A program made the position numbers and the translations under genes. DNA of 64,000 bases, from contig CAZEJT010000003.1 in NCBI GenBank assembly GCA_964512655.1, positions 183,719-247,718 on the forward strand, in the 5' to 3' direction. Below are positions 3,001 to 62,131 of the stretch, piece by piece. Each line of letters opens with the position of its first letter. Positions within the stretch are counted from its first letter, which is position 1. Below the pieces are notes generated by a model, which did no database searches, was not told where the DNA came from, and saw only the letters and a program-made list of their open reading frames with translations. The stretch comes from an uncultured Chlorobiaceae bacterium. Its GTDB lineage: Bacteria; Bacteroidota; Ignavibacteria; UBA10030; SZUA-254.

Positions 3001-4811
3001 TCGGCAATTACAGGGTCGGACCCCGGAACGGGACGGCTACCACCACACTCACCGGAAGTTCCCTCAACTCCCTTAATGTCTGCCCGAGATTCAGGAGTCT
3101 CCTCTTCCTCCATGATGGCAATTTGCCCGACTCGCTCCCCGTCAATCAGCTCCGGATTATCCCGACGGCCCCTGAGGTTGTCGACTCGGTAAGCGCGTGG
3201 TATCGAAAGTCGACCTCGTCGACGTGGCTTCCTCTTACCCTGAGCCAGAGCGATTCAATTTACACCACCCCATTGCCGGACACTCTCGGGGTCGGTTATT
3301 ACAGCACGCGGATACGGATCACCGATCTCGCATCGCAAACCATCGACTACGTGCTCGATCCCGGTTTCACCAGCCCCGGCACAATCCTCAACACCAATCC
3401 GCTGGTGTTCGATACCATACATGTGGGATGCAGGCAGACAAAAACCATCAGCGTTCAGAACCTTCGCCTCACGACCAATGCGGTGATCACGTCGATCGTT
3501 TCCGACGATACGACGTTCGTCCTCTCGTACGGCAACGCCACCATTGCGGGTTCTGAAAGTCTCTCCGTTCCCGTCACCTTCACCCCCGTCACGGCGGGAC
3601 TGCATGAGGCCCACATAATTTTCAACATCGTCGGCTTCGCCGGTCCTGAGACTGTCGCGGTTTCCGGAGTGGCTGGAAGCCCCGGAGGGGAGATTGAGAT
3701 CTCGGAGAACCTCGGCACGCACTGGCAGCTTATCTCCGTCCCGGTGGATGCAATCTGCCCATATCTGTTGCCTCCGCTGTACGCCTACCGCGGATCGTAT
3801 CTTATTCGCGATACGCTGAAATCAGGCGAAGGTTATTGGAAGAATGTCGTCGATCCGGTATTCACGTTTGTAGGGTTCCCTCGCACGATTGACACGATCC
3901 CCATGCTCCAGGGATGGAATCTCATCGGTTCGCTATCGACCCCGACGCCCGTCACGGTCCTCAACACCATTCCTGCCGGCCAGATTTCTTCGAGGGTCTT
4001 TGGCTATACTCAGGCGGGCTACTTTAAACCCGACAGCATCTCACCTACTCATGCATATTGGGTAAAGGTGAAAATCGCCTGTCAGCTGATTCTGCAAACG
4101 GGTGCCGCCTTCCCCGGAAAACCCGCAGCCTTGCCGATAGACCCCTACACCGCGGCCTCGCGCCTGACCGTCACGGACGCCCTGAGTAGAACCCGGGTTC
4201 TTTACTTCGGACCAAGATCCGATCTGCCGGGGAATGAAGGATTCTTTGAGTTGCCGCCGCCCCCGCCTGAGGGCTCCTTTGACGTGCGGTTCGGCTCAAA
4301 CAAAGAATGTGAGATCGTCCTAGATCACAAGGCCCAAAATTTCCCGATCCGCATAAGCTCGGCCGAGTATCCGGTCACGATCAGCTGGGATGTGAAATCG
4401 AGCACTCTCCTTGGCGTGCTGAGGGTAGGGACCGGAAGTATAGAGCTGAGCAAGAGCGGTTCCCTCACGATCCCGGCTGCAGCCGACACGGTAGCGCTGC
4501 GAATTACAGGTTCGGCTGCGCTTCCGAGAACATTCGCGCTCGATCAGAACTATCCCAATCCGTTCAATCCTCAGACGGTCATCCAGTACCAACTCCCCGT
4601 CGACAGCCGGGTTGAATTGAAGATCTATAACACCCTTGGCGAGCAGGTCGCAACCCTCATCGACGGCGAGCAGCCCGCCGGATACAAGTCGGTTACGTGG
4701 AACGGCGCCAATTTCGCGAGCGGCGTCTACTTCTGCCGTCTACACGCGGTAGGGGTAGCGGACGCGAAGAACAACTTTACACAGACGCGAAAGCTCGTAC
4801 TTATCAGATAG
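48..4811 (+). CDS. Subtilisin-like (S8) serine peptidase, 1587 aa, with T9SS type-A C-terminal sorting domain
   Basis: GTG start after a GGGGGG RBS-like run; signal peptide MRLLHSVQAALLLLASSALAQ. Catalytic triad motifs GILDTGIDY (Asp), HGTHVAG (His) and GTSMATPHVAG (Ser), with oxyanion AAGNSGP. About 1100 aa of extension without recognisable motifs. C-terminus [22 protein letters not shown]…GVYFCRL is a typical Por/T9SS CTD. Confidence 0.85.
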   Translation: MRLLHSVQAALLLLASSALAQTPSSVTSGIPPGQQAIIAPQLPDASGAGTLFVTGKSTPNNVTATYAPGTTVVTLSKGDSVLQRFGISPDDEVKVIVEFKNLPLSLVHSVREKHPSDRIQSALTAVRLDHDQFKADLPRIDLNPPPRSRSTFTGQVSSIRYEYSTAINGVALTTHRWVLDEIRKLPYVSAISEDFLVHALDDSSNTLIGAPTYWSTYGLHGDSTEIGILDTGIDYLHEALGGAPFPNTKVIGGYDIINNDNDPMDDNGHGTHVAGIAAGNGPGPTNLRGVAFGARLWAFKVLDQNGQGFSSQIIAGINLALDPDSNPATPTPISVLNLSIGGSGNPNDPGSRAIDNAVTSGLVCAVAAGNSGPGNYTINSPGCARKALTVGACSDLDVIASFSSRGPAGTTFAIKPDVIAPGVNVYSAKVGGGYFYLSGTSMATPHVAGAAALLRELHPSWSPDEIKANLMESAHDLGLNYWNQGHGRINVFDAAKESVVVVPGSISNGLDVTSQSTWTVKDTLTVYNFKNILESFNISMKNSPPSGITFAFDLPTLVVNANDSAKVVLTASVDNTVYPFPVGYPPSYFNTLVAKSSITSDSITVPFAFIKSPLLNLSFDTAPTLVDIHNNSDTLFFNAAFTNLIGLGLSVLVPVDTYDVETFFYSDSQMVVKEGVSVNGNTTVTIHSTDAANLITFHLININSQEITTGRLELESVVSTRSKFGISFFGQNAHKKRYISNISSNYIYEISTIPDFFLAGSAEYLFPFVVSTGISGPITLQNDPTKFKTMNYRCAVPPGTTRLNLTTIFSSATTGLGTTSLGIIYPPYQFKGYYAPQPIEENFPYLTHWLAADPQSILASMVHRTSYTAVSQPDTMRFSVGPTGFYFGSSQFVSTRPSYTSPLGLIPPMWAGRVIAYGTAIDVQVATDAYMLTGLGDRVVGPITYKTWLSGTPVDSGLFQNLPRYHLDTLLTVVTGGNFKFQTVFGNYRVGPRNGTATTTLTGSSLNSLNVCPRFRSLLFLHDGNLPDSLPVNQLRIIPTAPEVVDSVSAWYRKSTSSTWLPLTLSQSDSIYTTPLPDTLGVGYYSTRIRITDLASQTIDYVLDPGFTSPGTILNTNPLVFDTIHVGCRQTKTISVQNLRLTTNAVITSIVSDDTTFVLSYGNATIAGSESLSVPVTFTPVTAGLHEAHIIFNIVGFAGPETVAVSGVAGSPGGEIEISENLGTHWQLISVPVDAICPYLLPPLYAYRGSYLIRDTLKSGEGYWKNVVDPVFTFVGFPRTIDTIPMLQGWNLIGSLSTPTPVTVLNTIPAGQISSRVFGYTQAGYFKPDSISPTHAYWVKVKIACQLILQTGAAFPGKPAALPIDPYTAASRLTVTDALSRTRVLYFGPRSDLPGNEGFFELPPPPPEGSFDVRFGSNKECEIVLDHKAQNFPIRISSAEYPVTISWDVKSSTLLGVLRVGTGSIELSKSGSLTIPAAADTVALRITGSAALPRTFALDQNYPNPFNPQTVIQYQLPVDSRVELKIYNTLGEQVATLIDGEQPAGYKSVTWNGANFASGVYFCRLHAVGVADAKNNFTQTRKLVLIR

Positions 4812-14956: not shown

Positions 14957-15160
14957 TGAATTGGATAGGGAGACTGGCCTCTGAATTTAGGAAACTAGGC
15001 CAAAAGAAACAACGAGCTGTCCATGAACTTTCCTTCGGTTGTGCATGAGCCGGGAGTTGGGTAGATTTAGTGAAGAGGTATCTGACTGCCAGGGGGCGGC
15101 CGGGGGCCGGCGATCGTTTTGGATCACCGCACGGAACTACCTCCAGGGCTCAGAGAATTC

Positions 15161-15670
15161 ATGCGCGTGTTGGCGAGCATATCGGTGTGCTTTTTCTTGT
15201 TGGGATGCAGCGAGGAAGAAACATTCGTCCAATACCCCAGACCCAACATCGAGCTCAACGGCAGCGCCTCGCCTGTAACAGGAAGTGCGCTGACCCCGGT
15301 CACGGTTAGGGTGAGCGTCGTAAACAGTGGGAACCTTCGCAGGATATGCTATTCCGGTTGCGGTTATCTGACCCCCGGAATTACCTATCACCTTTATGAT
15401 CCCTACTTCAGGGAGGTCTATCTCTCCAATCCGCTGACCCGGCCCTATTGCGCGGACTTTGTTGAGCATTTCTATCCGAGCAAGACATTCGAGGGCACCT
15501 TCATAATCGACGGAACAATCTTTACCGCACAGGGAGATTCATCGGCTATGAAGCCTGGCACGTACTCCGTCATCATTGAGTTCACTTCCTGGGCCGAGGA
15601 AAACCCTTCCGGGGCAAGCGTCCTCGTAGAACAGAAGCTGCTCACGGTGGGTTGGAAATCGACGAAATGA
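15161..15670 (+). CDS. Paralogous lipoprotein family member 1 (possible BsuPI-like beta-sandwich; candidate protease-associated protein)
   Basis: ATG at the MRVL… signal with lipobox FLLGC. Conserved blocks RICYSGCGYL, YDPYF, PGTYSVIIEFTSWAEENPS and KLLTVGWK are shared with two paralogs. A conserved 45-bp leader lies upstream. Confidence 0.7.
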   Translation: MRVLASISVCFFLLGCSEEETFVQYPRPNIELNGSASPVTGSALTPVTVRVSVVNSGNLRRICYSGCGYLTPGITYHLYDPYFREVYLSNPLTRPYCADFVEHFYPSKTFEGTFIIDGTIFTAQGDSSAMKPGTYSVIIEFTSWAEENPSGASVLVEQKLLTVGWKSTK

Positions 15671-15761
15671 TCTGGGCTAAGGAGTGGAATACTCCGAGGA
15701 GGTAGCAATGGCAGCAACAACAGTATCGAGTGGAGTCATCGCAAGATTGAGCGTAGGTATC

Positions 15762-16271
15762 ATGCGGGTGGCGATGAGCATATCATTGTGCTTCTTGTTG
15801 TTGGGGTGCAATCAGGACGTGTTAACCGTTCCACCCGATACACTCGGCATCGAGCTCACTGTCACTCGTTCACCCACAGTGGGCAGCGTCACCAGCCCGG
15901 TGACCATCACGGCGCGCGTGAACAACCGGGGTGTATCGACGCGGATTTGTTTTTCAGGTTGCGACTATCTGATCACCGGGATAGCCTTTCGTATCTATGA
16001 TCCCTACTTCCAAGAGGTTTTTCTCTACAACCCGACGACGTGGCCGCATTGTGCAAACTATCGTGTGTCGTTCCATCCGGGTGAGAAAATCCAGGGTGCG
16101 TTCACATTCGACGGAACGCTCTATGATGTCCGTGGAGATACGCTTACGATGGGCGGGGGTACTTACACCGTCCTCATCGAATTCACTTCCTGGGCGGAGG
16201 AGAATCCATCCGATACAAATCGGCTCGACGTTGAGAAGCTGATTACATTTGACTGGAAAACGGGGGGATAA
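15762..16271 (+). CDS. Paralogous lipoprotein family member 2 (tandem copy)
   Basis: MRVAMSISLCFLLLGC lipobox, with RICFSGCDYLITG, YDPYFQEVFLYNP, GGTYTVLIEFTSWAEENPS and KLITFDWKTGG. About 70% identical to copy 3 and about 45% to copy 1. Confidence 0.75.
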   Translation: MRVAMSISLCFLLLGCNQDVLTVPPDTLGIELTVTRSPTVGSVTSPVTITARVNNRGVSTRICFSGCDYLITGIAFRIYDPYFQEVFLYNPTTWPHCANYRVSFHPGEKIQGAFTFDGTLYDVRGDTLTMGGGTYTVLIEFTSWAEENPSDTNRLDVEKLITFDWKTGG

Positions 16272-16314
16272 TCCGGGGACACCTTCAATTGGCTTCATTC
16301 CCTCGAATGAAAAA

Positions 16315-16341
16315 GTCCCAACCGGCGCGTCCGGTTGGGAC
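16315..16341. terminator. Bidirectional hairpin terminator between lipoprotein copy 2 and the convergent ECF sigma gene
   Basis: 11-bp perfect stem gtcccaaccgg / ccggttgggac with a cgcgt loop, and AAAAA on the + side (a T-run for the minus-strand gene). The same element recurs after copy 3. Confidence 0.6.
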
Positions 16342-16351
16342 TTACTACAAT

Positions 16352-21200: not shown

Positions 21201-21900
21201 ATTCAATCTCGGCGCCGGATTGGCGGCGAACCCTCAGAGCATTACATCGTTCATGCTTCTCGATTCGAATAATCAAACTACTGACACCTTCGTGAAAAAC
21301 GAGCCGGGGACTCTGCGCTTTTCTGTGAACGTGCTGAGCGATACAAACCATGTTCCACTGGCTGATTCCACCAAATCTTGGTACCGAAAGCACGGAACGG
21401 AACCGTGGATACCCCTTGCCCTGACGGAGATTGCGAAAGTGGCTGAAAGGGAGGGGAGAATCCTACAGGCGGATATCAGGGCGGCGACAGGGGAGGACTC
21501 GGTCGCGATTGATCTGAGGGTGGCGTCGAAGGGTATCAACGGATTTACAGTGGAGCAGATTGTTGCGCCCGCCTTCGCCGTTGGGAAATGGGATACACTT
21601 GTGACGGACGTGAAAACTCCCTCGCCACAGCTCCCGCTGCGATTCGCCCTCGAACAGAATTATCCGAATCCGTTCAATCCTTCAACGGTGATAAACTACG
21701 AAATCCCATCACGCGGCCGCGCGGTGATGAAGGTGTACGATGTGCTCGGCCGTGAAATGGTAACTCTGGTCGACCAGGAACAGGAGGCCGGCAGTCACAC
21801 TGTTTCCTGGAATGCATCCTCGATGCCGAGCGGCGTGTATTTCTATCGGCTTCAGATGCGCTCGAATATCGCTGCAAAGAAGCTGTTGCTACTCAGGTAG
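18286..21900 (+). CDS. Subtilisin-like (S8) serine peptidase, 1204 aa, with T9SS C-terminal sorting domain (paralog of 48..4811)
   Basis: Signal peptide, then a propeptide-like N-region. GIIDSGIDY (Asp), HGTHVAG (His) and [11 protein letters not shown] (Ser). [25 protein letters not shown]…GVYFYRL. Confidence 0.85.
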
Positions 21901-22493: not shown

Positions 22494-22635
22494 GGGTTCC
22501 TTTGCCTTTTTGTTGTGCAGATTAACAGATAATACGCGAACTGAGATGTACAACAATGAAACAGCACTAATCGGTTCAGTGGTTGTGCATGAGGCGGGAG
22601 TTGGGTAGATTGAGTGAAGAGGGCTCGGAGAATCT

Positions 22636-23139
22636 ATGCGCGTGTTGACGAGCATAACGGTGTGCTTTTTCTTGTTGGGATGCAATCATGACGTGCTAGT
22701 CGTTCCATCCCAGCTACTTGGCATCGAGGTCGCTGTCACACCCTCACCTTCGGTTGGCAGCCTCACCAGCCCGGTGACCGTGACGGCGAGCGTGAAAAAC
22801 CGCGGTATTTTCACGCGGCTCTGTTATTCAGGTTGCGACTATCTGATCACCGGGATAGACTTTCGTATCTACGATCCATACTTCCAGGAGGTTTTTCTCT
22901 ATGATCCGAGGACGCGGCCGCTTTGTGCAGACTTTACTGTTTTGTTCCATCCGGGTGAGAACATCCAGGGTGCGTTCACGATCGACGGGACACTCTACGA
23001 TGCTCGTGGCGATACGGTAAAGATGGGCCGGGGTACGTACAGCATCCTCATCGAATTCACTTCCTGGGCGGAGGATCATTCCGAGGTAAGTCGGCTCGTA
23101 GTCGAGAAGCTGATTACGTTTGACTGGAAGACGGGGTGA
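22636..23139 (+). CDS. Paralogous lipoprotein family member 3 (distal copy)
   Basis: MRVLTSITVCFFLLGC lipobox, with RLCYSGCDYLITG, YDPYFQEVFLYDP, GTYSILIEFTSWAEDH and KLITFDWKTG. Same leader and terminator as copies 1 and 2. Confidence 0.75.
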   Translation: MRVLTSITVCFFLLGCNHDVLVVPSQLLGIEVAVTPSPSVGSLTSPVTVTASVKNRGIFTRLCYSGCDYLITGIDFRIYDPYFQEVFLYDPRTRPLCADFTVLFHPGENIQGAFTIDGTLYDARGDTVKMGRGTYSILIEFTSWAEDHSEVSRLVVEKLITFDWKTG

Positions 23140-23196
23140 TAATCCGGAACAACTCGGAGACACCTTCAACTGGCCTTCATTCCCTCTAATGAAAAA

Positions 23197-23231
23197 GTCC
23201 CACCTGGCGCGGCCGGTTGGGACTTTCTGCG
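23197..23231 (+). terminator. Rho-independent terminator after lipoprotein copy 3
   Basis: gtcccacctggcgcggccggttgggac stem-loop followed by TTTCTGCG. Paralogous to the 16315-16341 hairpin. Confidence 0.55.
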
Positions 23232-23367: not shown

Positions 23368-24702
23368 ATGAGGACACGCATTTTCCTTCCGATCGTTTAC
23401 CTTCTCTGGCTTCACTCGACTGCCCAAACCCAAGCCTGGGTTCCGATCAAAAGCAGCTTCATGGGACCGGACACGGCTGTCCCCCCGGCCATCTGGACGT
23501 TAACAGGCTTTGACGGCAACCTCATTGTGGCCGGTTCTTTCGGTAGTGTCGCGGGTGTTGAAGCGCACTCCATTGCGCGCTGGGACGGGACCGAATGGCA
23601 CTCGCTCGCAGGTGGCCTCACCGCGTCGAATGCCCCGAATAACGAAATTCGTGCGGTCTTGGGCCTTGGAACTGATTTGTACGCCGGAGGAGAGTTCGAC
23701 TCGATCGGAGGAATCCGGGCGAAGAATGTTGCCCGCTGGGATGGTTTTGAATGGCATGCTGTTGACGAGACGATAAAGGCCTTCCCCGTACACGCGATGT
23801 TTGTGTACCAGGGTGAGTTGTACGTCAGCGGTGTGTTTGACATGGCAGTCGCGAAGCTCGTGAACGGATCGTGGGTGCGGGTGGGATCAGATACCGATTA
23901 TGCCGGCGGATCTTCGATGACCGTGTTCCAGAATGATTTATATGTCGGAGGTTTCGAGCGGGTGATGAAGTGGAACGGGTCGAGTTGGTCTGTCCTTGGG
24001 CTGAATCCGTGGCCGGAGCACATATATGCCGCCCTTGCCACCTTTGGAAATTCTCTCTACGCCAGCGTTTACTCTCCGTATAACACAAACCTCATTGCCC
24101 GGTTCAAGGACGGTGTTTGGGAGGAGATTCTTACGCCACGACTTCACAAGTCCTATGGAGCATTTAGCAACTTCGGAAGTACCTTGATCGCCGGCGGCAC
24201 ACACGAGGCGTTCGACACCTCCGATGGGGTTGTGCCGGCTAATGGTTTGGCCGTATGGGATGGATCGAGTTGGCATTCGGGGCCAGGCGGTGTTCAAGCA
24301 ATCGTGTCGGGTTTTACAATTATCGACAGCACGCTTTATGCTGCCGGGTCGTTTCAGTTCGAAGGCGACAGTGCGACCTATGGGGTCGCGAGGTTATTAC
24401 TCCCCAACGATGTTACCGGCGGCCAGCCGCACGTTCCCCGCGAATTTGCGCTGGGTCAGAACTATCCTAACCCCTTCAATCCGTCGACAACATTCACGTT
24501 TAGTCTTCCATCGAAAGCGTTCGTCTCGCTGAAAGTGTTTGATGAATTGGGGAGAGAGGTATCAACAGTTTTTGCCCAAGAGATGCCTCCGGGGGTGTAT
24601 TCAAGGCATTGGAATGCCGATGGTTTATCCAGTGGCACATACTTTTATCGGCTTCGCGCCGGCTCAATCAGCGAAACCAGGAAGCTCATTGTGGTACGAT
24701 AA
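23368..24702 (+). CDS. Kelch-like beta-propeller repeat protein with T9SS C-terminal sorting domain
   Basis: Signal peptide MRTRIFLPIVYLLWLHSTAQ. About six repeats of the form ARWDGTEWHSLAGG, ARWDGFEWHAV, MKWNGSSWSVLG and AVWDGSSWHSGPGG at roughly 50-aa spacing. [25 protein letters not shown]…GTYFYRL. Confidence 0.75.
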   Translation: MRTRIFLPIVYLLWLHSTAQTQAWVPIKSSFMGPDTAVPPAIWTLTGFDGNLIVAGSFGSVAGVEAHSIARWDGTEWHSLAGGLTASNAPNNEIRAVLGLGTDLYAGGEFDSIGGIRAKNVARWDGFEWHAVDETIKAFPVHAMFVYQGELYVSGVFDMAVAKLVNGSWVRVGSDTDYAGGSSMTVFQNDLYVGGFERVMKWNGSSWSVLGLNPWPEHIYAALATFGNSLYASVYSPYNTNLIARFKDGVWEEILTPRLHKSYGAFSNFGSTLIAGGTHEAFDTSDGVVPANGLAVWDGSSWHSGPGGVQAIVSGFTIIDSTLYAAGSFQFEGDSATYGVARLLLPNDVTGGQPHVPREFALGQNYPNPFNPSTTFTFSLPSKAFVSLKVFDELGREVSTVFAQEMPPGVYSRHWNADGLSSGTYFYRLRAGSISETRKLIVVR

Positions 24703-38323: not shown

Positions 38324-40927
38324 GTGGCCGGGGTTAATGAAAAAGTAGTTCCAGTCGATATCGAAGAAGAAATGAAGGGCTCGTACATCGATTATGCGAT
38401 GAGCGTAATCGTTGCGCGGGCGCTCCCCGATGTGCGCGACGGATTGAAGCCGGTTCACCGGCGCGTTCTTTTTGGCATGCAGGAGCTGGGCCTCGCAAGC
38501 AACAGGGCCTATAAGAAGGCCGCCCGCATCGTGGGCGAGGTTTTGGGAAAATATCACCCCCACGGCGACACGGCGGTCTACGACACGATGGTAAGAATGG
38601 CACAGCCATTCTCGCTCCGCTACCCGCTGGTCGACGGGCAGGGGAATTTCGGTTCGGTCGACGGCGATGCGCCCGCGGCGATGCGTTACACCGAGGCGCG
38701 CCTCTCGAGAATCGCCGAAGAAATGCTCCGGGATCTCGAGAAGAACACGGTCGACTTTGTCCCGAATTTCGACGATTCGCTCAAGGAACCGACAGTCCTT
38801 CCCGCCCTGATCCCGAACCTCCTGGTGAACGGGACCTCGGGCATTGCCGTCGGCATGACTACGAACGTCCCCCCGCACAACCTCACCGAAGTTGTCGACG
38901 GATGCGTTGCCGTGATCGACAATCCCGATCTTCCGGATGAAAAGCTGTTAAAGATCGTGAAAGCGCCCGATTTTCCCACCGGCGGAATAATCTACGGGTA
39001 CCAGGGAGTCAAGGAGGCGTACAAGACCGGGCGGGGGAGAATCATTGTTCGCGCCAAGGCCTCCATCGAGACCGGGCGCGCCGACCGCCAGTCGATCGTT
39101 GTAACCGAGATTCCCTATCAAGTCAATAAGTCGAGCCTCATCGAGAAGATCGCCGACCTGGCTCGCGAGAAGAAGATCGACGACATCTCCGACATCCGCG
39201 ACGAGTCTGATCGTGACGGACTCCGGGTGGTCATCGAGCTCAAGCGCGACGCCAATGCGCCCGTTGTGCTCAACAACCTCTACAAGCACACGCAGATGCA
39301 GACGACCTACGGGGTCATCATGCTCGCTCTTGTGGACGGCAGGCCGGCGCTGCTCAAACTCAGGGAGATCATCGATCATTTCATCAAGCACCGCAATACG
39401 ATCATCGTCCGGCGGGCGAAGTACGAACTGAGCGAAGCCGAGAAACGGGCCCACATTCTCGAGGGATACATCATCGCCCTCGACAATATCGATGAGATCA
39501 TCAAGCTCATTAAGAAATCGAAGGATGTGCCGGCGGCCCAGGAAGGGCTGATGAAGCGGTTCAAGTTATCGGAGATCCAGGCGAAAGCGATCCTCGACAT
39601 GCGCCTGCAGAAACTCACGGGGCTCGAGCGGAAGAAGGTCGAAGACGAGTACAAAGAAACGATCAAGCTGATCGAGCGGCTCAAGGCGATCCTGGCCAGC
39701 AAGAAGCTCCAGATGCAAATGATCAAGGAAGAGCTCCTCGAGATCAGGAAGAAATACGGCGACGAGCGGCGCACGGAAATCGTTTACAAGGCCGAGGAAT
39801 TCAGCGTCGAGGACATGATTGCCGAGGAGAACGTGGTCATCACCATCAGCCACGGCGGCTTCATCAAGCGGTTCCCGGTCTCCGGGTACAGGAGACAGGG
39901 CCGCGGAGGAAGAGGGGTGACTGGCGCGACGACGAAGGAAGACGATTTCATCGAACACCTCTTCATCGCCTCCACGCACAATTATATCCTCTTCTTCACG
40001 GATAAGGGCCGATGCTACTGGCTGAAGGTGCACGAGATTCCCGAGGCAGGGCGCGCCTCGCGCGGGAAGTCGATCGTCAATCTCGTTTCGAAGCAGAACG
40101 ACGAAACCATCGCGGCATTTGTCCCCGTGCAGGAATTCGACGACAAGCATTTCGTGGCGATGGTGACGGTACACGGAGTCATCAAGAAGACCGCGCTCTC
40201 CGAGTTCGGAAACGTTCGCCGGACCGGGATCGCGGCTATCAGCATGCGGAAGGATGACACCGTAAAGGACGTGAAACTGACCGACGGGACCGAGGACATC
40301 ATCATCGGCACTCACGATGGGATGGCGATCCGCTTCTCCGAGAAGGACGCGAGGCCGATGGGCCGGAGCGCATCCGGCGTACGCGCGGTCACTCTCAACA
40401 AGGGAGACAGGGTTGTCGGCGCGGTCGCCCTCAAGCGAAGGAAGACTTCAATTCTTGTCGTCGCTCAGAACGGATTCGGGAAACGCAGCGAGCTGGATGA
40501 GTACCCCATACGGCATCGCGGTGGAAAGGGCGTCATCACGCTACGCGTTACGGACAAGACAGGAAAGATGGTCGGGATCAAAGAGGTGCTCGATAACGAC
40601 GACATCGTCGTGATGACCGCCAAGGGCGTCATCATACGCCAGCCTGCAAGGGAGATCCGAATGGCCGGACGCATCACCCAGGGCGTCAGACTCATACGCC
40701 TCGAGTCGGGTGATCAGGTTGCAGATCTTGCTGCGGTTCCTACGGAGGAGGCGAAAGAGGAATCGGAGGGAGCTGCTCCGGCAGCGCCGCCAGCTGAGAC
40801 CAAATCAGCCGAACCGGTTGCCGAGAAACCCGCCGGAGCAAAGAAGAAAGCAACAGAACCGAAGGGAGTCAAAGCGGAGGCAAAACCAAAAGCGGGATCC
40901 AAGCGAGGCGGTAAGAAGAGCCGGTAG
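38324..40927 (+). CDS. gyrA: DNA gyrase subunit A
   Basis: Catalytic region …AMRYTEARL… with the active-site Tyr, and the QRDR-equivalent region [18 protein letters not shown]-terminal beta-pinwheel repeats and a Lys/Ala/Glu-rich acidic-basic tail. Confidence 0.95.
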
Positions 40928-40933
40928 GCCCGG

Positions 40934-40963
40934 CTGGTGTCACGGTCCGGACCGTGACACCAG
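40934..40963. repeat. 30-bp perfect palindrome CTGGTGTCACGGTCC|GGACCGTGACACCAG (repeat copy 1)
   Basis: Immediately after the gyrA stop. A second copy (13-bp stem with 4-nt loop) lies at 59870-59899. Confidence 0.8.
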
Positions 40964-41023
40964 GTCGAAAAAGTCGAAACCGAGTCACAAGGGAGCAGGA
41001 AAGAAAGGCCGGTAGGCGAGATT

Positions 41024-41047
41024 GGTAGGCGCCGGCTTTAGCCGGCG
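41024..41047. repeat. GGTAGGCG-type GC-rich hairpin repeat (gcgccggc-ttta-gccggcg), copy 1
   Basis: ggtaggcgccggctttagccggcg is identical to 59993-60016. The ggtaggc core is repeated three times within 40921-41047. Confidence 0.75.
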
Positions 41048-41136
41048 TCCGCATTTCGAGAGTCATGCGCAATCGAAGAGTCACTTTGACAAGGTCTTTT
41101 GCAGTACATCGACTCTAACCGGGAAGGAGAACGGAA

Positions 41137-41712
41137 TTGACTGCAAAGATCAAAATGCTCTCACTTGTCCATTTGCCTCTGGTCTTATTTTGCAGCTTGT
41201 CTCTGTTTCTATTCACGACCTGCAACGATGGTACCTCACTTATGAACGGTCCTGGGAAACCGGACCCGGGAGATCAATTCGTAACATTTCCTGTTCTCAG
41301 GAATTACAGCTCGATTCCGAATCCCCTGGACCGGTGGAGAGCCTATCACCTAACCGACTATGTGATCGAGCAGGTGAGCGCAGGGGGGTGGGTGCCATCT
41401 GATACCGTTCGGATTTACGTCCTTGCTGGTCTGAAGGCTCTTGTCGTGCGAGAATCGGACAAGGACACGATGCCCCGAAACTACCCGTTTTACATGACGG
41501 CTGATGACTTGTTTTCTCGGGTGGAGGGGGTCGGCTCGCGCCTCCTGCCCGGCGATTCCCTTTTTGTCGAGTACGACTCCCGCTTCGGATATCCGTCTAA
41601 GATCTCCTTCTTTACCTCCCGCATCACAGACGCGGACATGAGTATATACACATGGAATATTAGACAGATCGTTAATCCGTACACACCGGCGCCCAACGCC
41701 CAAGGTGAGTAG
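41137..41712 (+). CDS. Hypothetical lipoprotein
   Basis: Signal/lipobox MLSLVHLPLVLFCSLSLFLFTTC; no recognisable motifs. Confidence 0.45.
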   Translation: MTAKIKMLSLVHLPLVLFCSLSLFLFTTCNDGTSLMNGPGKPDPGDQFVTFPVLRNYSSIPNPLDRWRAYHLTDYVIEQVSAGGWVPSDTVRIYVLAGLKALVVRESDKDTMPRNYPFYMTADDLFSRVEGVGSRLLPGDSLFVEYDSRFGYPSKISFFTSRITDADMSIYTWNIRQIVNPYTPAPNAQGE

Positions 41713-41804
41713 GCGTGACTATATCGCCCAGCACTTTTGCTTCGCACTCTGAATCGGTAGATTCTAAGCTTGCAAAAGGGGTGCGGTGTTTTGCAACATG
41801 GTAA

Positions 41805-41827
41805 CGCCCCCTAAAGGGGGCGCCTAC
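41805..41827. repeat. GGTAGGCG-family hairpin (cgccccc-taaa-gggggcg + CCTAC), copy 3, overlapping the TonB receptor stop
   Basis: Same architecture as the other two loci: a GC stem with a TAAA loop, with flanking gtaggcg (41708) … cgcctac (41821) outer complements. Confidence 0.6.
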
Positions 41828-44082
41828 AAGTTGACCGTGATTGTTCCGATGGCCCTCCTCTTCAACAGCGACCCTCCAAAAATCTCGTAGTGTTCCCTGT
41901 CGAGGAGGTTCGACACATCTACACCGAGCGTGAGGTTCTGGGTCAACTTGTACCTCCCGGTAAGATTCACGATCGTGTACGAAAGTATTCTCCCCTGAAA
42001 GATTCCCGCAGACCAATCGTACGAAGGAACATACTTCAGAGAAAGCCCCGCCTGTAAACCATTCCGGTGCTTGTATGAAACCGCTCCGTTGAGCTTGTGC
42101 TGAGGAGTATTCGGCAACAGCGGACTATTCGTGCTCTGCTCATCGATGGTAAAGTCAAAGAAGGAGTAGTTCCCCGAAAGAGTCCAATCCTCGGACAACC
42201 CATAATTCAACCCAACCTCAAACCCTGATTCCGTCACCTTCCCGGCGTTGCCGTACGACCAAACCGACCGGAGTTTTCCGCCGATATTCTCCTGTCCGTG
42301 GTATGCGGGGTTTGCTCCGGGCGTGAGATCGGTGATGAAGTCGCTGAGCCGGTCGTAATATGCGTCAACCGTCGCGTCAAGTGCATTGCCAAACAGGCCT
42401 CTGTAACCGAACTCAAACCCGTTGATCTTTTCCACTTCCAGATCGCTGTTTCCGAGGTAGGCGAGCGGCTGGGACGGATGGAGGACGTAGAGAAAAAGCT
42501 CCGCGTAGTTCGGCGACTGGAACGCGCGGTTATACGTGACGCGAAAATTGTGGTCATGGAGCGGCGACCAGACCAGTGCGACCTTTGGAGAGAACTGGCC
42601 CGAGTACAGGGTGCTTCTGTCCCAGCGAGTTGCTCCAAGGATTTTCCATTGCTCTGAGAACCTGTACTCCATCTGCCCGAAGAGGCCGGTCATGTTATCC
42701 TCGTGCTCGGCAAGCATCAGCGTACCGCGCGTGTCGACGCTTTGATACCTGTACGAGATTCCTGTAGTTACCAGGGCATGCTCGCCCAGCGGTGCGAAGT
42801 GATATTGATAGTCTCCCTGCAGCGCTAGCGAGTGCTCCTCCAGAGGGAGACCCGTCGAGAGAGAGTACTGGGGTTCGCGCGAGTCCCGACCGGTCGCCCA
42901 GAATTGTGCGATCGAATGTTCGTCCGAGTAATGCAGGCGGCCCCACGGTTTCCAGGCACGTGTTACCTGGACTCTTCCGATCCCGGTGACGAAGACTTCA
43001 TTCTCAACCTGCGCAAGGCCGGCTTCCGCGGCGGCCGTGGTCTTCGTGTCGATCTCGTAGTCCGCGCGCGCAGACCCGTACGTTGATGTGACGGGATTCG
43101 TATTCAGCGCCTTCACTTCCAGATTGATAAAAGGGTTGAATCCCGCGTACTCGAACGGACGTGCCTGCGATGTGTCGCGTGGAACGCTCCACGTATCCCC
43201 TTGCGAGCGGCCGAGATTCATCTTGTAACTCCATCTTCCTGAGATGCCCGCATGCTGGATGTCTGTGCGGAATGTGTTTTTTTCGCCCGCCGCAAGCGAG
43301 AGTTTGGTGCCGGATACTTCTTTCGGCGCCGGCGTGATAATATTGAGGACTCCGTTGAATGCGTTCGCGCCGTAGAGGGCGGAACCGGGGCCCCGGACGA
43401 GCTCGAGGCGGCCCAGGTCCTCGACGGGAACTGTCAATCCGTTCCATTCCTGTGAGCCGAGGAAGACGACCGAGAGATCTCTCCCGTCAAGGAGAACGAG
43501 GAGCCGGCGTGTGAGCGAACTGTTGAATCCCCGGGTATTGATATTGAAATCGAAGAGCCCGTTCTGAGCGAGATCGACACCGGGGAGGTGCTCAAGGAGC
43601 TTTGGCACCTGGCCCTGGCCTGAGTTAAGCTGGAGGTCGCCGGCCTCGATCGTTGAGACCGCCGCAGGGGCCTCGGCGATGCGCTCGCGCCTGAATGAAG
43701 CGCCATAGACGACCACCTCGCCGACCTGAACGGCGGCCTCCTTCATTCGGAGGGCGACATAGGAAGTATCGTTCGTTTTGCCAATCAACCCAAGAAACTC
43801 CTCGGTCTGATACCCGATCGCCATCACGGTGAACGTGTACTGTCCCAGGGGAATATGTGAGATCAGAAACTTTCCCTCCGCATCCGTTGCGGCGCCAAGC
43901 GTCGTGCCGTTGATAAGAACATCCGCATCTGCGACCGGATCGCCCGATGCATCGCTCACGACAGTCCCGCTCATGGTTCCTGTCGGTTGGGCAACGAGAG
44001 ATATATTACAAAAGAGGAGCGGGAGTGAAGCAAGTATGCACAGAAGGGGTACGGAGGTTCGTATCCCGGGAGGGATTATCAC
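41824..44082 (-). CDS. TonB-dependent outer-membrane receptor with N-terminal carboxypeptidase-regulatory-like domain
   Basis: Signal peptide; GTMSGTVVSDASGDPVADADVLINGTTLGAATDAEGKF (CarbopepD_reg-like); plug domain; a ~500-aa beta-barrel ending in an aromatic C-terminus (…TITVNL). Confidence 0.85.
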   Translation of the reverse strand: MIIPPGIRTSVPLLCILASLPLLFCNISLVAQPTGTMSGTVVSDASGDPVADADVLINGTTLGAATDAEGKFLISHIPLGQYTFTVMAIGYQTEEFLGLIGKTNDTSYVALRMKEAAVQVGEVVVYGASFRRERIAEAPAAVSTIEAGDLQLNSGQGQVPKLLEHLPGVDLAQNGLFDFNINTRGFNSSLTRRLLVLLDGRDLSVVFLGSQEWNGLTVPVEDLGRLELVRGPGSALYGANAFNGVLNIITPAPKEVSGTKLSLAAGEKNTFRTDIQHAGISGRWSYKMNLGRSQGDTWSVPRDTSQARPFEYAGFNPFINLEVKALNTNPVTSTYGSARADYEIDTKTTAAAEAGLAQVENEVFVTGIGRVQVTRAWKPWGRLHYSDEHSIAQFWATGRDSREPQYSLSTGLPLEEHSLALQGDYQYHFAPLGEHALVTTGISYRYQSVDTRGTLMLAEHEDNMTGLFGQMEYRFSEQWKILGATRWDRSTLYSGQFSPKVALVWSPLHDHNFRVTYNRAFQSPNYAELFLYVLHPSQPLAYLGNSDLEVEKINGFEFGYRGLFGNALDATVDAYYDRLSDFITDLTPGANPAYHGQENIGGKLRSVWSYGNAGKVTESGFEVGLNYGLSEDWTLSGNYSFFDFTIDEQSTNSPLLPNTPQHKLNGAVSYKHRNGLQAGLSLKYVPSYDWSAGIFQGRILSYTIVNLTGRYKLTQNLTLGVDVSNLLDREHYEIFGGSLLKRRAIGTITVNL

Positions 44083-59130: not shown

Positions 59131-59838
59131 ATGAAACGCGAGACAATAAGATTGATGAGATGCCTCATGCTCCTGTCGGCGCTGGCGGCGCCGGGGCTGC
59201 GGGCTGAGATCAGGGTGATGGCGCTGAAAGGGCATGTGTACGTCCGGCACAACGTCCAGGAACAGTGGGTCCCCGTTGCGCGGGGAGACGTTCTCAAGCC
59301 CGAAGACTCGATGAAATCCGACGAGAAGTCCTCATCGACGCTTCTTGTGGACGGCAAAACGACGGTCGTCCTTCCCGAGATGGCGATTATCGATCTGTCG
59401 GATTTGCGGTCGCTCACGCGGGAAGACCTGCTCCTGAAGCTTGCGATGGAGCGCATTCGGAGTGTTCCGGAGAAGGGGAGCGGTGACGAGCTCAACATGC
59501 CGAGAACTACAATTATCCACGGGCCCGATGTTACTCAGCGCCACATCTCTGCGGGAACCGATCCGCAGATTGGGCTGATGCAGATGAAGGGAACCGAAGT
59601 TCTGTTCGGCAGCGGGTTTTACGAAACGGGCGTGCTCAAGGCGAAGGGATTATTCAGGATCCATCCTGAGCTCGCAATGCGCATGGACGACCGGCTCATG
59701 GTTGCGAAAGCCCTTGAGACGTTAAAGCTGAAAGGAGAGGCGCTGGAAGAGTATGTCCAGCTTCGCTCCGAGAAGCTGACCGATGATCAGAGAGATTTCG
59801 TAGTACAGAAGATCGGAGAGTTGAAGGGCTCCCGCTAA
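59131..59838 (+). CDS. Hypothetical secreted protein
   Basis: Signal peptide MRCLMLLSALAAPGLRAE; 235 aa; last gene of the co-directional cluster. Confidence 0.5.
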   Translation: MKRETIRLMRCLMLLSALAAPGLRAEIRVMALKGHVYVRHNVQEQWVPVARGDVLKPEDSMKSDEKSSSTLLVDGKTTVVLPEMAIIDLSDLRSLTREDLLLKLAMERIRSVPEKGSGDELNMPRTTIIHGPDVTQRHISAGTDPQIGLMQMKGTEVLFGSGFYETGVLKAKGLFRIHPELAMRMDDRLMVAKALETLKLKGEALEEYVQLRSEKLTDDQRDFVVQKIGELKGSR

Positions 59839-59869
59839 ACGCACCCCTTCGGGGTCATGCCCAGCGGTA

Positions 59870-59899
59870 CTGGTGTCACGGTCCATACCGTGACACCAG
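59870..59899. repeat. Palindromic repeat CTGGTGTCACGGT-ccat-ACCGTGACACCAG (copy 2 of the 40934 element)
   Basis: 13-bp stem identical to the 40934-40963 palindrome arms. Preceded by a UUCG-loop hairpin accccTTCGggggt (59842-59854) right after the stop codon. Confidence 0.8.
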
Positions 59900-59992
59900 C
59901 GAATCCTCCCGTCTCCCCCTCGCTCCGCCGCTCCTGCGGCGGAACGCATCATTTGGCGCTCCGCGCCCTACACCTGGAACTTCACAATTCAC

Positions 59993-60043
59993 GGTAGGCG
60001 CCGGCTTTAGCCGGCGCTACGCACGCTAAAGCGTGCGCCTACC
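59993..60043. repeat. Composite GGTAGGCG-family element: outer stem ggtaggcgc/gcgcctacc enclosing two hairpins (cggc-ttta-gccg and gcacgc-taaa-gcgtgc)
   Basis: The first 24 bp are identical to 41024-41047. The loops cttag/ctaaag are mutually complementary, allowing alternative folds. Sits between convergent genes. Confidence 0.7.
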
Positions 60044-60051
60044 ACATGCGC

Positions 60052-60753
60052 CTATCTTCCCACCAGCAACCTGTCCGCAAGCGGTCTCGGCAAACCCGCC
60101 TTCCTGATTCGCTCTGCGGACTCCTCCACGTCGTACTCCGCCCGAATATTTTCGTACGTGGCCGCCCCGGTATCCAGTATCCCCATACTCAGCCGCGGGT
60201 CGTTGTCGCGCGGCTGACCGACGCTCCCCACGTTGATGATAAATTTCTTCCCCGCCGCGTACTCCTCCGTTCGCCCGTCGTCACAATATATGGCCGGCAC
60301 GTGCGAATGTCCGAGGAAACAAACCTGCTCCTCAAAATAATAGAAATTGAACTGGGCGTCGGCGGGAGTAAGGACATAATGCCACTCATTGGGTTCGAAG
60401 GGCGATGAGTGCACGAAGAGCGCGCCCTCCAGCTCGAGCGTGTACGGGAGCCGGCCGACAAACTCTGCGTGTTCGGGGGTCAACTGTTTGTTGGTCCACT
60501 CCGCCGCCACCCTCGCGAGCGGGTTGAAGTATTCCGTTCTTGAGAGATCGATTGCGGCCTCATCGTGATTTCCCAACAGGATGTGTTCCGTGGTGTTCCG
60601 GACGAGTTCGATGCACTCATTGGGGTTCGCGCCGTAGCCGATGAGATCGCCGAGGCATACGACCGCGTCCACGTGTTGTGCGGAGACGATCTCCAGCGCC
60701 TTCTCCAGAGCGCCGAGATTCGAGTGGATGTCTGAGATGATAGCGAGGCGCAA
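60052..60753 (-). CDS. Metallophosphoesterase (YfcE/MJ0936-like)
   Basis: Motifs ISDIHSN, CLGDLIGYG and GNHDEA (MPP family), with a C-terminal GHSHVP. Confidence 0.8.
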   Translation of the reverse strand: MRLAIISDIHSNLGALEKALEIVSAQHVDAVVCLGDLIGYGANPNECIELVRNTTEHILLGNHDEAAIDLSRTEYFNPLARVAAEWTNKQLTPEHAEFVGRLPYTLELEGALFVHSSPFEPNEWHYVLTPADAQFNFYYFEEQVCFLGHSHVPAIYCDDGRTEEYAAGKKFIINVGSVGQPRDNDPRLSMGILDTGAATYENIRAEYDVEESAERIRKAGLPRPLADRLLVGR

Positions 60754-60760
60754 TCCGGCG

Positions 60761-62131
60761 CTACGTTTTCTGCTGTTTCTTTTTCGCGGCCGGGAAGAGG
60801 ATGTTATTGAGGATCAATCGATAACCCGGTGAATTCTTGTGCAGGCTCAGATCCGTGGGTTGGTCGCCCACCGCGTGTTGGTAATCCTCGGGATCGTGAC
60901 CTCCGTAAAATGTCCAGGTTCCGCGGCCGTAATTGCCGTGGATGTACCGGACTTCCTCCGTGCCTTCCTTCTCCGCGAGAATAGTGACGTTCTTTTTGAT
61001 GAGGCTCTTCTTGAAATTGGTGGTTTGCCCCAGAAACCCTTTGATGATGTTGGCGTGGTCCTGCGTCAGCATCGTGGGAACAGGATCGTACTTCGCCGAG
61101 AATTCAAAGAGCGTGAAATAGTCGGTCTCCTGATTCGGAGGCGGCAGCATGTCGCTCGGCGGAATGTCGATGTCTGAATACTCGTACCGCAGGGGGTTCA
61201 TCTCGAGTTTGAAGTTTTCAAATGCGAGGCATTTCGAGTAGTCGAGCTTTTTCTGGGCATCCGCATCGGGAGGATCGCCGTCGTACATGACATCGCAGAT
61301 GTCGGTATTCTGGGCCGCAAGGGCGATGTCGTATGTGTCGGTGGCGGAGCACATCGCGAACAGAAATCCCCCGGCCGCAATGTATTCCTTGATCTTCCTC
61401 GCCACGGCCTTCTTTACCTCCGAGACCTTCTTAAACCCCAGCTCCTTCGCTCTCTTTTCATAGAGCACCTGCTGCTCCACATACCAAGGCTGGGTGGAAT
61501 AGTTCGCGTAAAACTTGCCGTACTGGCCCGTGAAGTCCTCGTGATGGAGATGAATCCAGTCGTAGTTGAGGAGTTTGTCCTGAAGAACTTCGGGGTCCCA
61601 CACCTTGTCGTACGGGATTTCCGCGTACTCCATCACGAGCGTGACGGCATCGTCCCAGGGAAGGGTGTTGGGAGTGACATAGACGGCGATCTTCGGCGCT
61701 TTCTCCAGCCGCACCGCATCCATATTGTTGTTTTCGTTCTGCACCTCGGAATAAATCGCGCTGGCCTGCGCTCCGCCTATTTCTTCGAACACCACACCGC
61801 GAATCCTGCATTCCTGGGCAACCGTGGCAACGCCGTCCATCATGAAGGAGCCGCCGCGGTAATTCAGGAGCCAATCGACTTCGATGTTTTTCGTGAGCGC
61901 CCAATACGCGATGCCGTATGCCTTCAGATGGTCCGTCTGTTTGAGGTCCATCGGGACCAGTATCTTCTGCGCGAATGCGAGAGATGTCGCGAGGATGAGG
62001 CAGAGAATGGCGGTCGCTGCGATCACCGGAACCTGCCTGAGAACTCCGGCTGTCCCCGGATTTCGTTTGCTTTCCGGGCCACGCCGGCTGAAGCCGGCGC
62101 CTGCAACTCCCTCACACACATCGAACATCAT
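60761..62131 (-). CDS. Hypothetical secreted or membrane-anchored protein (456 aa)
   Basis: N-terminal hydrophobic segment ATAILCLILATSLAFAQ. No firm motif; GGFLFAMCSAT could be a class-I glutamine-amidotransferase-like nucleophile elbow. The start overlaps the upstream TPR gene stop. Confidence 0.45.
   Translation of the reverse strand: MMFDVCEGVAGAGFSRRGPESKRNPGTAGVLRQVPVIAATAILCLILATSLAFAQKILVPMDLKQTDHLKAYGIAYWALTKNIEVDWLLNYRGGSFMMDGVATVAQECRIRGVVFEEIGGAQASAIYSEVQNENNNMDAVRLEKAPKIAVYVTPNTLPWDDAVTLVMEYAEIPYDKVWDPEVLQDKLLNYDWIHLHHEDFTGQYGKFYANYSTQPWYVEQQVLYEKRAKELGFKKVSEVKKAVARKIKEYIAAGGFLFAMCSATDTYDIALAAQNTDICDVMYDGDPPDADAQKKLDYSKCLAFENFKLEMNPLRYEYSDIDIPPSDMLPPPNQETDYFTLFEFSAKYDPVPTMLTQDHANIIKGFLGQTTNFKKSLIKKNVTILAEKEGTEEVRYIHGNYGRGTWTFYGGHDPEDYQHAVGDQPTDLSLHKNSPGYRLILNNILFPAAKKKQQKT

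Follow-up and report, generated by a model that had tools for sequence, protein, structure and literature searches.

Probable REP repeats of two families at gene 3' ends, including that of gyrA, in the DNA of an uncultured Ignavibacteria-like bacterium

The window analysed in the present study, a 64,000-nt stretch of contig CAZEJT010000003.1 from an uncultured bacterium, contains gyrA, a DUF6174 gene and a TonB-dependent receptor gene in one part and, further on, a pair of convergent genes, for a 235-aa protein and a metallophosphoesterase, followed by ORF 60761..62131. GC-rich hairpins are located behind gyrA and two other genes, and we put the probability that these are bacterial REP repeats, belonging to two families (designated A and P), at roughly 85%. 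Within the 69 kb of the source genome that were read (the window plus approximately 5 kb), seven units were found at four places, five of type A, one of them degenerate and inside a coding sequence, and two of type P (Table 1); the 5.1 kb beyond the window end contained no additional A or P units. Apart from the degenerate A unit, all units (four A and two P) lie outside genes, at gene 3' ends.

Table 1 Coordinates of the repeat units and associated features in the window
Feature	Position	Strand	Remarks
P-type unit, copy 1	40929..40967	-	nhmmer: 41.1 bits (minus strand) vs 36.1 bits (plus strand)
Truncated A-type head, CCGGTAGGCGAGATT	41009..41022	+	GTAG tag without hairpin; recognised from the sequence only, profile search without match
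A-type GTAG REP unit, GGTAGGCGCCGGCTTTAGCCGGCG	41023..41050	+	Profile E 2.5e-7; DUF6174 ORF starts 87 bp downstream
A-type GTAG REP unit, stem CCCCC/GGGGG	41802..41829	-	Profile E 8.2e-5
Block present or absent among strains, 194 bp	59849..60042	.	Between convergent genes 59131..59838 and 60052..60753
P-type unit, copy 2, 13-bp arms, 4-nt loop (CCAT)	59864..59903	+	46.9 bits
Linker module, two hairpins: CCGCCGC-TCCT-GCGGCGG and GGCGC-TCC-GCGCC	59904..59969	+	
A-type GTAG REP unit, 24-mer as at 41024	59992..60019	+	E 1.2e-7; inverted dimer, left half
A-type GTAG REP unit, stem CACGC/GCGTG	60017..60044	-	E 9.1e-7; inverted dimer, right half
Degenerate A-type unit, TGCAGGCGCCGGCTTCAGCCGGCG	62079..62102	-	E 1.6e-4; within the first codons of ORF 60761..62131

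The A unit of the window is a GTAG-tagged hairpin of the design GGTAGGCGC-NNN-CTTTAG-NNN-GCG. All four intact units fit GTAGGCGC-NNN-CTTTAG-NNN-GCG, and each of them combines an unpaired GTAG(G) 5' of the stem, a stem of 7–8 bp and a TTTA loop. The three stem variants among these units (CCGGC, CACGC and CCCCC) are altered on both sides of the stem, and the variation is thus compensatory. The sequences given in a preliminary description of this DNA are all present in the window, and small corrections were needed. The 24-mer reported there as common to two unrelated intergenic sites, GGTAGGCGCCGGCTTTAGCCGGCG, is exact at 41024-41047 and 59993-60016, with 0 matches in 100 shuffles, and GGTAGGCG was observed nine times against 1.3 occurrences expected. 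The third site that had been noticed, overlapping the stop of the TonB-dependent receptor gene, corresponds to the minus-strand A unit at 41803-41829, which reads TGTAGGCGCCCCCTTTAGGGGGCG and supplies, with its TAG, the stop of the receptor ORF (41824..44082). Additionally, profile searches revealed the degenerate A unit at 62079-62102(-), missed by the earlier reader, with GCAG in place of GTAG.

The P unit, approximately 45 nt long, has the design CTGGTGTCACGG-N4/6-CCGTGACACCAG in the window and carries no GTAG tag; the consensus of the family is TnAAACT-GGTGTCACGG-TCCATA-CCGTGACACC-AGCnGGGAA. Copy 1 is located directly 3' of the gyrA stop, is best read in the reverse orientation (CCCGGCT...AGGTCGAAA) and includes the perfect 30-bp palindrome CTGGTGTCACGGTCC/GGACCGTGACACCAG at 40934-40963, while the palindrome of copy 2 at 59870-59899 is CTGGTGTCACGGT-CCAT-ACCGTGACACCAG. 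The two 30-mers, described earlier as one shared palindrome, are not identical and match at 28 of 30 positions. The linker module that follows copy 2 terminates in CCCTAC, which is GTAG when read on the minus strand.

The two A units at 59993-60043 form an inverted pair in which one loop is TTTA, the other is TAAA, and GGTAGG/CCTACC makes up the outer stem; its arms of 24 nt are 83% complementary and are separated by 3 nt. The nested three-way structure suggested for this copy is one possible fold of the pair, which can also be drawn as a single long imperfect hairpin. Its fold energy is -36.5 kcal/mol (z -4.8) on one strand and -37.7 kcal/mol (z -4.2) on the other, and the surrounding 220 nt (59836-60055) fold with -63.4 kcal/mol versus -35.5 for shuffled sequences (z -8.3). 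No Rfam family matched anywhere in the whole window at the gathering score.

Family A was followed in public genomes by a scan with a pattern of 17 fixed bases and six free stem bases, which gave at least 124 matches in at least 107 loci. The free stem triplets are perfectly complementary in 92 of the 124 listed matches, compared to 1/64 expected, and 11 distinct variants occur. A HUH/Y1 gene of 144–170 aa (frameshifted in one case) with A units within 161 bp is present in six of the 107 listed loci. A units in inverted orientation stand on both sides of the HUH/Y1 gene in L012, L027 and L072, and inverted A pairs stand on each side of it in L017. Three of the six A-linked genes were scored; the NCBIfam model NF047646, "REP-associated tyrosine transposase" (cut-off 80 bits), gave 68, 83 and 89 bits, one of them (68) being below the cut-off, and the Pfam model Y1_Tnp (cut-off 23 bits) was passed with 42.8 and 37.4 bits and failed with 19.8 bits.

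A metagenome scan for family P gave 151 copies in 118 loci, often with several copies per contig. These copies have an oriented consensus in common that reaches beyond the palindrome and has asymmetric flanks, and they are mostly extragenic: 30% lie within long ORFs, although long ORFs account for 88.5% of the bases. Inverted P units are located on both sides of a gene (in L137) that scores 114 bits on NF047646, well above the cut-off, and the P-associated enzyme is therefore a RAYT according to this model. Its three homologues (in L244, L245 and L247; 55–62% identity) are flanked by P-design palindromes with covarying stems, so that, with L137 included, four loci link P-like palindromes to this second clade of RAYTs. 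Both A and P are dispersed, multi-copy and intermixed in related metagenome contigs, and one related assembly contains many copies. The linker module together with its P unit (59864..59969) has 82–83% identity to copies in other contigs. Note that the P/A-rich contigs belong to an organism other than that of the window; only the repeats align, at 82–83%. The single dispersed REP/BIME-like family of the preliminary description should be seen in this light: its REP/BIME character is supported, but the units fall into two families, each with a candidate transposase clade of its own. The accompanying proposal that the palindromes are targets of a RAYT gains support from the A and P units that flank RAYT genes in the loci of other genomes.

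Between the convergent genes, P copy 2, the linker hairpins and the inverted A dimer make up a 194-bp block, which segregates among eight related samples (SRR12313477-84). Contigs of SRR12313478, -81 and -84 lack block 59849-60042, those of -79, -80 and -82 carry it, and those of SRR12313477 and -83 end exactly at the block junction; over 6128 + 3958 bp of flanking DNA the identity is 100.000%. Contig breaks were also considered as a sign of repetition, and this was rejected: they fall at a perfect palindrome, where an assembly based on a k-mer graph is expected to break. There is no target duplication, and the right edge of the block is exactly 5' of the GTAG of unit 60017..60044. With junctions of T|T and C|C, the block departs from the C|T rule for cleavage by the E. 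coli enzyme (PMC3479197), and this rule was rejected here. The change may have been a gain or a loss. The event may be a deletion, because 21 nt on the left side of P, outside the family consensus, belong to the block, and because the UUCG-type hairpin ACCCCTTCGGGGT is interrupted in its loop by the block.

As the entire block is missing in otherwise identical strains, P and A were first read as fixed ends, P on the left and A on the right, of a single non-autonomous PATE or MITE of the IS200/IS605 type, mobilised in single-stranded form by a classical TnpA. This now appears improbable. Several features do agree with it: of 52 pairs of A and P units not more than 200 nt apart, 42 share a strand, the P-linker-A arrangement of 59866-60016 recurs as a composite in L217, L182 and L131 (four places together with the window), the block left no target duplication, and the 5' foot of both hairpins is conserved in sequence (AAACT in P and GTAG in A), such one-strand hairpin ends and enzymes of the HUH/Y1 family being typical of IS200/IS605 elements and their PATE/MITE derivatives. 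However, the P-to-A distance varies from 2 to 193 nt with both orders occurring, P and A are oppositely oriented at the gyrA site, and RAYT genes bordered on both sides by units of a single family exist for A as well as for P; for these reasons, the strict version with fixed ends was dropped. Moreover, the block extends 21 nt past the P consensus and holds an extra inverted A unit, and no IS200-type TnpA or TnpB gene was found between a P and an A unit, the only gene concerned being the L137 RAYT with P units on both sides. Unlike in IS200/IS605 systems, the associated genes score 83–114 bits on the RAYT model versus 21–24 bits on the IS200 model, the units far outnumber the genes, and no fixed pair of left and right ends is apparent.

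Even less credit can be given to the view that the hairpins are solely host-selected 3'-end signals (terminators or mRNA stabilisers), neither mobile nor linked to a transposase. It is true that every intact unit lies just past a stop codon or between convergent genes, that the hairpin stems are very stable, and that REPs, after they have settled at a site, are known to act in this way (PMC3733652). At the same time, no hairpin has a T-tail (the tails after the units are TCCGCATTTCG, CGAATCC, CACATGC and TTACCAT), the terminator scan called no intrinsic terminator at any unit, two unrelated loci have one 24-mer in common, the design recurs on the flanks of RAYT genes in other genomes, and identical strains differ in carrying or lacking a whole cluster. 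Close relatives have no hairpin behind gyrA or the TonB-dependent receptor gene. The receptor gene of these relatives ends in TAA or TAG without a repeat, and relatives without any repeat also terminate gyrA in CGGTAG; the GGTAG at the gyrA stop is thus ancestral and not derived from an element. As an additional role of the REP units, the hairpins behind the convergent genes may also serve as 3' RNA stem-loops.

That the P palindrome, with its arms of 13–15 bp, is repeated because a dimeric protein binds to it, as to an operator or a nucleoid-protein site, deserves hardly any weight, since the covarying stems of the P palindromes that flank RAYT genes preserve the pairing and not the sequence, and since both window copies are at gene 3' ends and not at promoters, have asymmetric conserved flanks and belong to a family whose copies stand in tandem and mixed with A units, although a long perfect inverted repeat with the fixed core TGTCACGG..CCGTGACA, found also in other conserved contexts in unrelated metagenomes, would suit such a protein.

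The DUF6174 gene is flanked by the A unit at 41024 (+) and the inverted A unit at 41829 (-) and is missing from 95%-identical relatives. It was considered as a REP-bounded cargo cassette, and this was rejected: the sole homologue lies on a contig of 928 bp that carries no REPs, and hence there is no evidence that the gene travels with REPs.

The interpretation as two families of REP repeats fits well into what has been published. The nearest REPs are those of the "REPtrons" (Nunvar 2010, PMC2817692; Di Nocera 2013, PMC3733652), namely GTAGGGTGGGCTTtAGCCCACC of Haemophilus influenzae and TGTGGGAGCGGGTTtACCCGCGAA of Pseudomonas putida GB-1; inverted REPs flank the RAYT genes, and usually more than 100 REP copies are present per host genome (PMC2817692). 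GTAG REPs often give the neighbouring ORF its TAG stop, form inverted dimers, occur between convergent genes and are sometimes located within genes (PMC3733652). Family A agrees with them in the unpaired 5' GTAG(G), the GC-rich stem (6–9 bp in this class), the TTTA-type loop and the compensatory variants, in the occurrence of singletons and head-to-head dimers behind genes or between convergent genes with TAG as a stop, and in the occasional intragenic units and the inverted units flanking RAYT genes in other genomes. It differs from them in its new stem sequence and in its host, an Ignavibacteria-like member of the Bacteroidota, whereas the described GTAG REPs are mainly from Gammaproteobacteria. 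Among the matches listed, the A core GTAGGCGCAGGCTTTAGCCTGCG is unchanged in MAGs assigned by their labels to many phyla, and the A-type hairpin as a whole is nearly identical in those of more than 15; most of the REP families described so far are, in contrast, lineage-specific.

Family P resembles the TIRYT/TIRtrons, in which RAYT-like genes are flanked by GTAG-less self-complementary repeats (Di Nocera 2013, PMC3733652): it is GTAG-less and self-complementary, its inverted copies flank a RAYT-like gene, and it is a moderately to highly repeated, clustered family. In contrast to the TIRYT case, the 114-bit score of its enzyme is well above the NCBIfam RAYT cut-off, and P units are regularly interspersed among GTAG REPs of the same strand; for degenerate GTAG-1 units joined to unrelated stem-loops (double repeats), only two Pseudomonas cases are given (Di Nocera, PMC3733652). 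As in the BIMEs of E. coli and the REPINs of Pseudomonas fluorescens (Bertels and Rainey 2011, PMC3116915), the inverted doublet at 59993-60043 folds into one long hairpin, short conserved motifs of other kinds occur among the REPs, and units are gained or lost between strains. Unlike in BIMEs and REPINs, the doublet has arms with different stems (83% complementary) and a spacing of 3 nt, it was seen once in the 69 kb read, and the mosaics join two unrelated palindrome families.

A mechanism for the formation of singletons, the inverted dimer and the BIME-like mosaics of REP families A and P can be proposed by analogy with the E. coli enzyme, for which GTAG is essential in TnpA-REP binding and cleavage (PMC3479197). 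Each family would be the DNA substrate of its own RAYT clade (HUH/Y1 enzymes). The RAYT would recognise the hairpin that forms when the DNA is single-stranded, as well as the bases at the hairpin's 5' foot, and would cut and rejoin the strand, and units could in this way be spread, rearranged or removed without target-site duplication. The window contains no RAYT gene, which counts against the interpretation, as do the small number of units in the 69 kb read and the departure of the block junctions from the C|T rule; the source genome presumably encodes one, which would have caused the GTAG-bounded 194-bp change.

The A and P families leave the known picture of REPs unchanged. To our knowledge, REP-RAYT systems have nearly always been studied in Proteobacteria, and two REP families and candidate transposase clades are placed here in an uncultured Ignavibacteria-like lineage. 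The 194-bp block provides a natural presence/absence case with exact junctions, which could be used to follow how REP clusters come and go. As a bolder suggestion, for which the odds are admittedly poor, the A-type hairpin may mark a RAYT lineage that crosses phyla with its REP, and P together with the GTAG hairpin, as two unrelated RAYT substrates, may form one-strand hybrid mosaics that are still excised or inserted in a natural population; cross-phylum movement of a RAYT and its REP, if true, would be contrary to the view of mostly vertical inheritance and lineage specificity. Additionally, the repeats account for assembly breaks at palindromes, for stop codons supplied by a repeat and for a coding stretch derived from a repeat.

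The palindromic repeats of the window belong to two families, and their arrangement there is one singleton, one head-to-head dimer and BIME-like A/P mosaics. The identification of family A, a GTAG-tagged hairpin, as repetitive extragenic palindromes (REPs) is supported, as is that of family P, ~45-nt units around a long palindrome, as a further REP-like family, one of those that lack a GTAG tag and bound genes like those of REP-associated tyrosine transposases (RAYTs).

Repeat units located in the window
Feature	Position	Strand	Remarks
Perfect 30-bp palindrome CTGGTGTCACGGTCC/GGACCGTGACACCAG	40934-40963		six bases 3' of gyrA stop codon
Second palindrome copy	59870-59899		13-bp arms and CCAT loop; two central bases differ from 40934-40963
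A unit	41024	+	stem CCGGC
A unit	59993	+	stem CCGGC
A unit	60043	-	stem CACGC
A unit	41829	-	stem CCCCC
Degenerate fifth A unit TGCAGGCGCCGGCTTCAGCCGGCG	62079-62102	-	profile search; in about codons 8-16 of ORF 60761..62131

On the appropriate strand, the four intact A units have the common design (G)GTAGGCGC-NNN-CTTTAG-NNN-GCG, and each stem variant is changed on both sides, so that pairing is kept. The 24-mer GGTAGGCGCCGGCTTTAGCCGGCG, which the preliminary description had placed at two sites, is indeed exact at 41024-41047 and 59993-60016 and was absent in 100 of 100 shuffles; the 30-bp palindrome described as shared is likewise present at both sites, but it is perfect only in the gyrA-side copy. 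Profiles made from copies found outside the window recovered all four intact A units and both palindromes when run on it, the gyrA-side palindrome scoring best in reverse orientation. The degenerate unit is either a repeat-derived stretch in coding sequence or else a sign of a miscalled start codon; at its start, this ORF overlaps the last part of the gene upstream. Positions 59836-60055 (220 nt) form a row of five hairpins (-63.4 kcal/mol vs -35.5 for shuffles, z -8.3). No T run follows any of the hairpins in the window, a terminator scan of the window made no call at them, and Rfam gave zero matches anywhere in it. A secondary role of the hairpins as putative 3' RNA stem-loops is plausible.

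Site 1 has gyrA on one side and a small DUF6174 gene on the other, site 3 lies between the DUF6174 gene and a convergent TonB-dependent receptor gene, and site 2 separates a convergent 235-aa gene of unknown function from a metallophosphoesterase gene. The same design had been proposed for a third site overlapping the receptor stop, and this holds: the receptor gene's TAG stop codon coincides with the last three bases of the GTAG in the 41829 (-) unit. The named gyrA relatives that rank best come from MAGs with the label Bacteroidota or Ignavibacteria. At 95% GyrA identity, relatives have a gyrA-receptor gap of only 11-23 bp, without the repeat or the DUF6174 gene (L237 6605-6627; L238 4522-4532), and in an 87% relative it is filled by a mazE/PIN toxin-antitoxin pair (L240 6632-7578); the 896 bp at 40928-41823 were therefore gained in this lineage, at a spot that varies. 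Comparison with these relatives also shows that the receptor stop codon in the window derives from the repeat and that the CGGTAG at the gyrA stop is ancestral and lies outside any element. A search gave no support for the DUF6174 gene travelling between two inverted A units. There is no RAYT gene within the window, and the 5.1 kb past its end hold no further A or P units.

Independent assemblies from eight related sequencing runs revealed a presence/absence polymorphism at site 2. The short allele, in which AAACGCACCCCT directly adjoins CACATGCGCC, occurs in contigs of SRR12313478, -81 and -84, and the long allele, with 194 bp more (59849-60042) at that junction, in the window and in contigs of -79, -80 and -82. 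Contigs of -77 and -83 end right at the junction, which would be the outcome if those samples contained both forms. The flanks of the two alleles agree at 100.000% over 6128 and 3958 bp, and each junction can be placed without ambiguity, with neither target duplication nor microhomology. On the right, the block stops precisely 5' of the GTAG in the minus-strand A unit. On the left, it starts 21 nt ahead of the P consensus and cuts through the loop of a small hairpin, ACCCC-TTC-GGGGT, leaving half of this hairpin in the flank. Since five complementary bases would rarely meet by accident at the edge of an insertion, the short allele is more probably the product of deletion or excision. The junctions (T|T and C|C) do not fit the C|T rule established for the Escherichia coli enzyme (PMC3479197).

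Family A was sought in 185,579 species-representative genomes with the pattern GTAGGCGCNNNCTTTAGNNNGCG (17 fixed bases), which gave at least 124 matches at at least 107 loci; about 70 chance matches would be expected in that much sequence by our own estimate. Of the 124 matches listed, 92 have full complementarity at the six free stem positions (chance 1/64), and these 92 fall into 11 distinct variants. The commonest form among the matches listed, GTAGGCGCAGGCTTTAGCCTGCG, is letter-identical in MAGs whose labels span more than 15 phyla (L008-L114), including Ignavibacteria, Kapaibacterium, Cloacimonadota, Binatia, Aerophobetes, Nitrospirota, Uhrbacteria, Coxiellaceae, Gemmataceae and others. 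REPs are usually lineage-specific, and identity across phyla is unusual; it suggests either that RAYT and REP were transferred together or that the hairpin is very tightly constrained. At 6 of the 107 listed loci, A units lie at most 161 bp from a gene of 144-170 aa that encodes HUH and Y..NP motifs and is frameshifted in L012, a co-occurrence expected by chance well under once on our estimate for 8-kb loci and one gene per genome. In L012, L027 and L072 the gene has inverted units on both sides, and in L017 it has inverted pairs to either side. The three of these six A-linked proteins that were scored gave 68, 83 and 89 bits on the NCBIfam model NF047646, 'REP-associated tyrosine transposase' (cut-off 80), and far less on the IS200 model; the Pfam Y1_Tnp model, with a cut-off of 23 bits, is passed by two (42.8 and 37.4) and missed by one (19.8). 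In a Binatia MAG, three A units form a direct tandem with a 33-bp period (L075 726-814).

One metagenome scan with GGTGTCACGGNNNNNNCCGTGACACC gave 151 copies of family P at 118 loci, most from one assembly (JACXTT01) and at most four per locus. Oriented by the loop, the copies have TnAAACT-palindrome-AGCnGGGAA in common and no likeness further out; only 30% lie in ORFs of at least 150 aa, which make up 88.5% of bases. Many have adjoining A units, and 42 of 52 A/P pairs up to 200 nt apart share a strand; the pairs occur in either order and at distances of 2-193 nt. Window positions 59866-60016 (P, two-hairpin linker, A) align to three such contigs, with 82-83% over P and linker; the absence of any aligned gene shows that these contigs are from a different organism. 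In L137, inverted P units stand on either side of a gene for a 194-aa protein (114 bits on NF047646) that has 704 homologues at E <= 1e-10, several carrying the JGI name RayT. Three homologues (55-62% identity) are each bounded by P-design palindromes with different compensating stems (CTGTCATGG..CCATGACAG, CTGGCACGG..CCGTGCCAG and CTGTCACGAA..TTCGTGACAG), ending in an (A)GCC-type tail like the P consensus. The A-linked and P-linked enzymes share only 19-24% identity. The core GGTGTCACGG-N6-CCGTGACACC was also seen in other conserved contexts in peat metagenomes (L135, L157, L193, L222, L230), one of which, TTTTC...CATGTTGGGC, recurs in several metagenomes, and four core copies with their own flanks lie within 6.5 kb in L160 (856-4317); other lineages thus own families built on this core.

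The observation is confirmed, and the suggestion of a REP/BIME family that may be targeted by a RAYT is supported by the A and P units that bound RAYT genes elsewhere, refined in that two families and two transposase clades take part, not one. The window repeats match published REP/RAYT descriptions point by point. RAYT genes are bounded by inverted REPs, which cluster in mosaics (PMC2817692); the Haemophilus influenzae REP GTAGGGTGGGCTTtAGCCCACC from the same source has the layout of the window A units, TTTA loop included. GTAG ends supplying TAG stop codons, REP dimers, convergent-gene locations, intragenic copies and self-complementary repeats without GTAG bounding RAYT-like genes have all been described (PMC3733652), and RAYT groups have been reported outside Proteobacteria, in Chlorobia among others (PMC5581495). 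GTAG is needed for hairpin binding and cleavage (PMC3479197). By the published mechanism, which is proposed for these repeats too, a RAYT would bind the hairpin folded in single-stranded DNA, plus its 5' bases; its tyrosine would cut and the strands would be rejoined, leaving no target duplication. Three points are of some interest: the natural indel is clean, two unrelated RAYT substrates are mixed on the same strand, and the A hairpin is nearly identical in MAGs from many phyla.

Every short-read graph assembly of the strain breaks at the palindromes, at 40934 and inside 59870-59899 (starts of L006 and L007; ends of L002, L003, L234 and L251-L253). These breaks were dropped as evidence for repeats, since long perfect inverted repeats cause such breaks during assembly and fragment these genomes at REP sites. 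ARAGORN called a tRNA-Ser(tga) at 38725-38817 (-), antisense within the gyrA coding region, probably a false positive. Three related ~600-bp genes at 15119-16346 and 22581-23228 (62-83% DNA identity), each followed by a hairpin AAAGTCCCAACCGG...CCGGTTGGGACTT, are local paralogues that have a conserved 3' stem-loop of their own and no relation to the REPs. A conserved 39-nt stretch encoding ...NYPNPFN... ends three large ORFs (4532-4570, 21642-21680 and 24444-24482); it resembles a type IX secretion C-terminal sorting signal, which would fit a Bacteroidota-type host.
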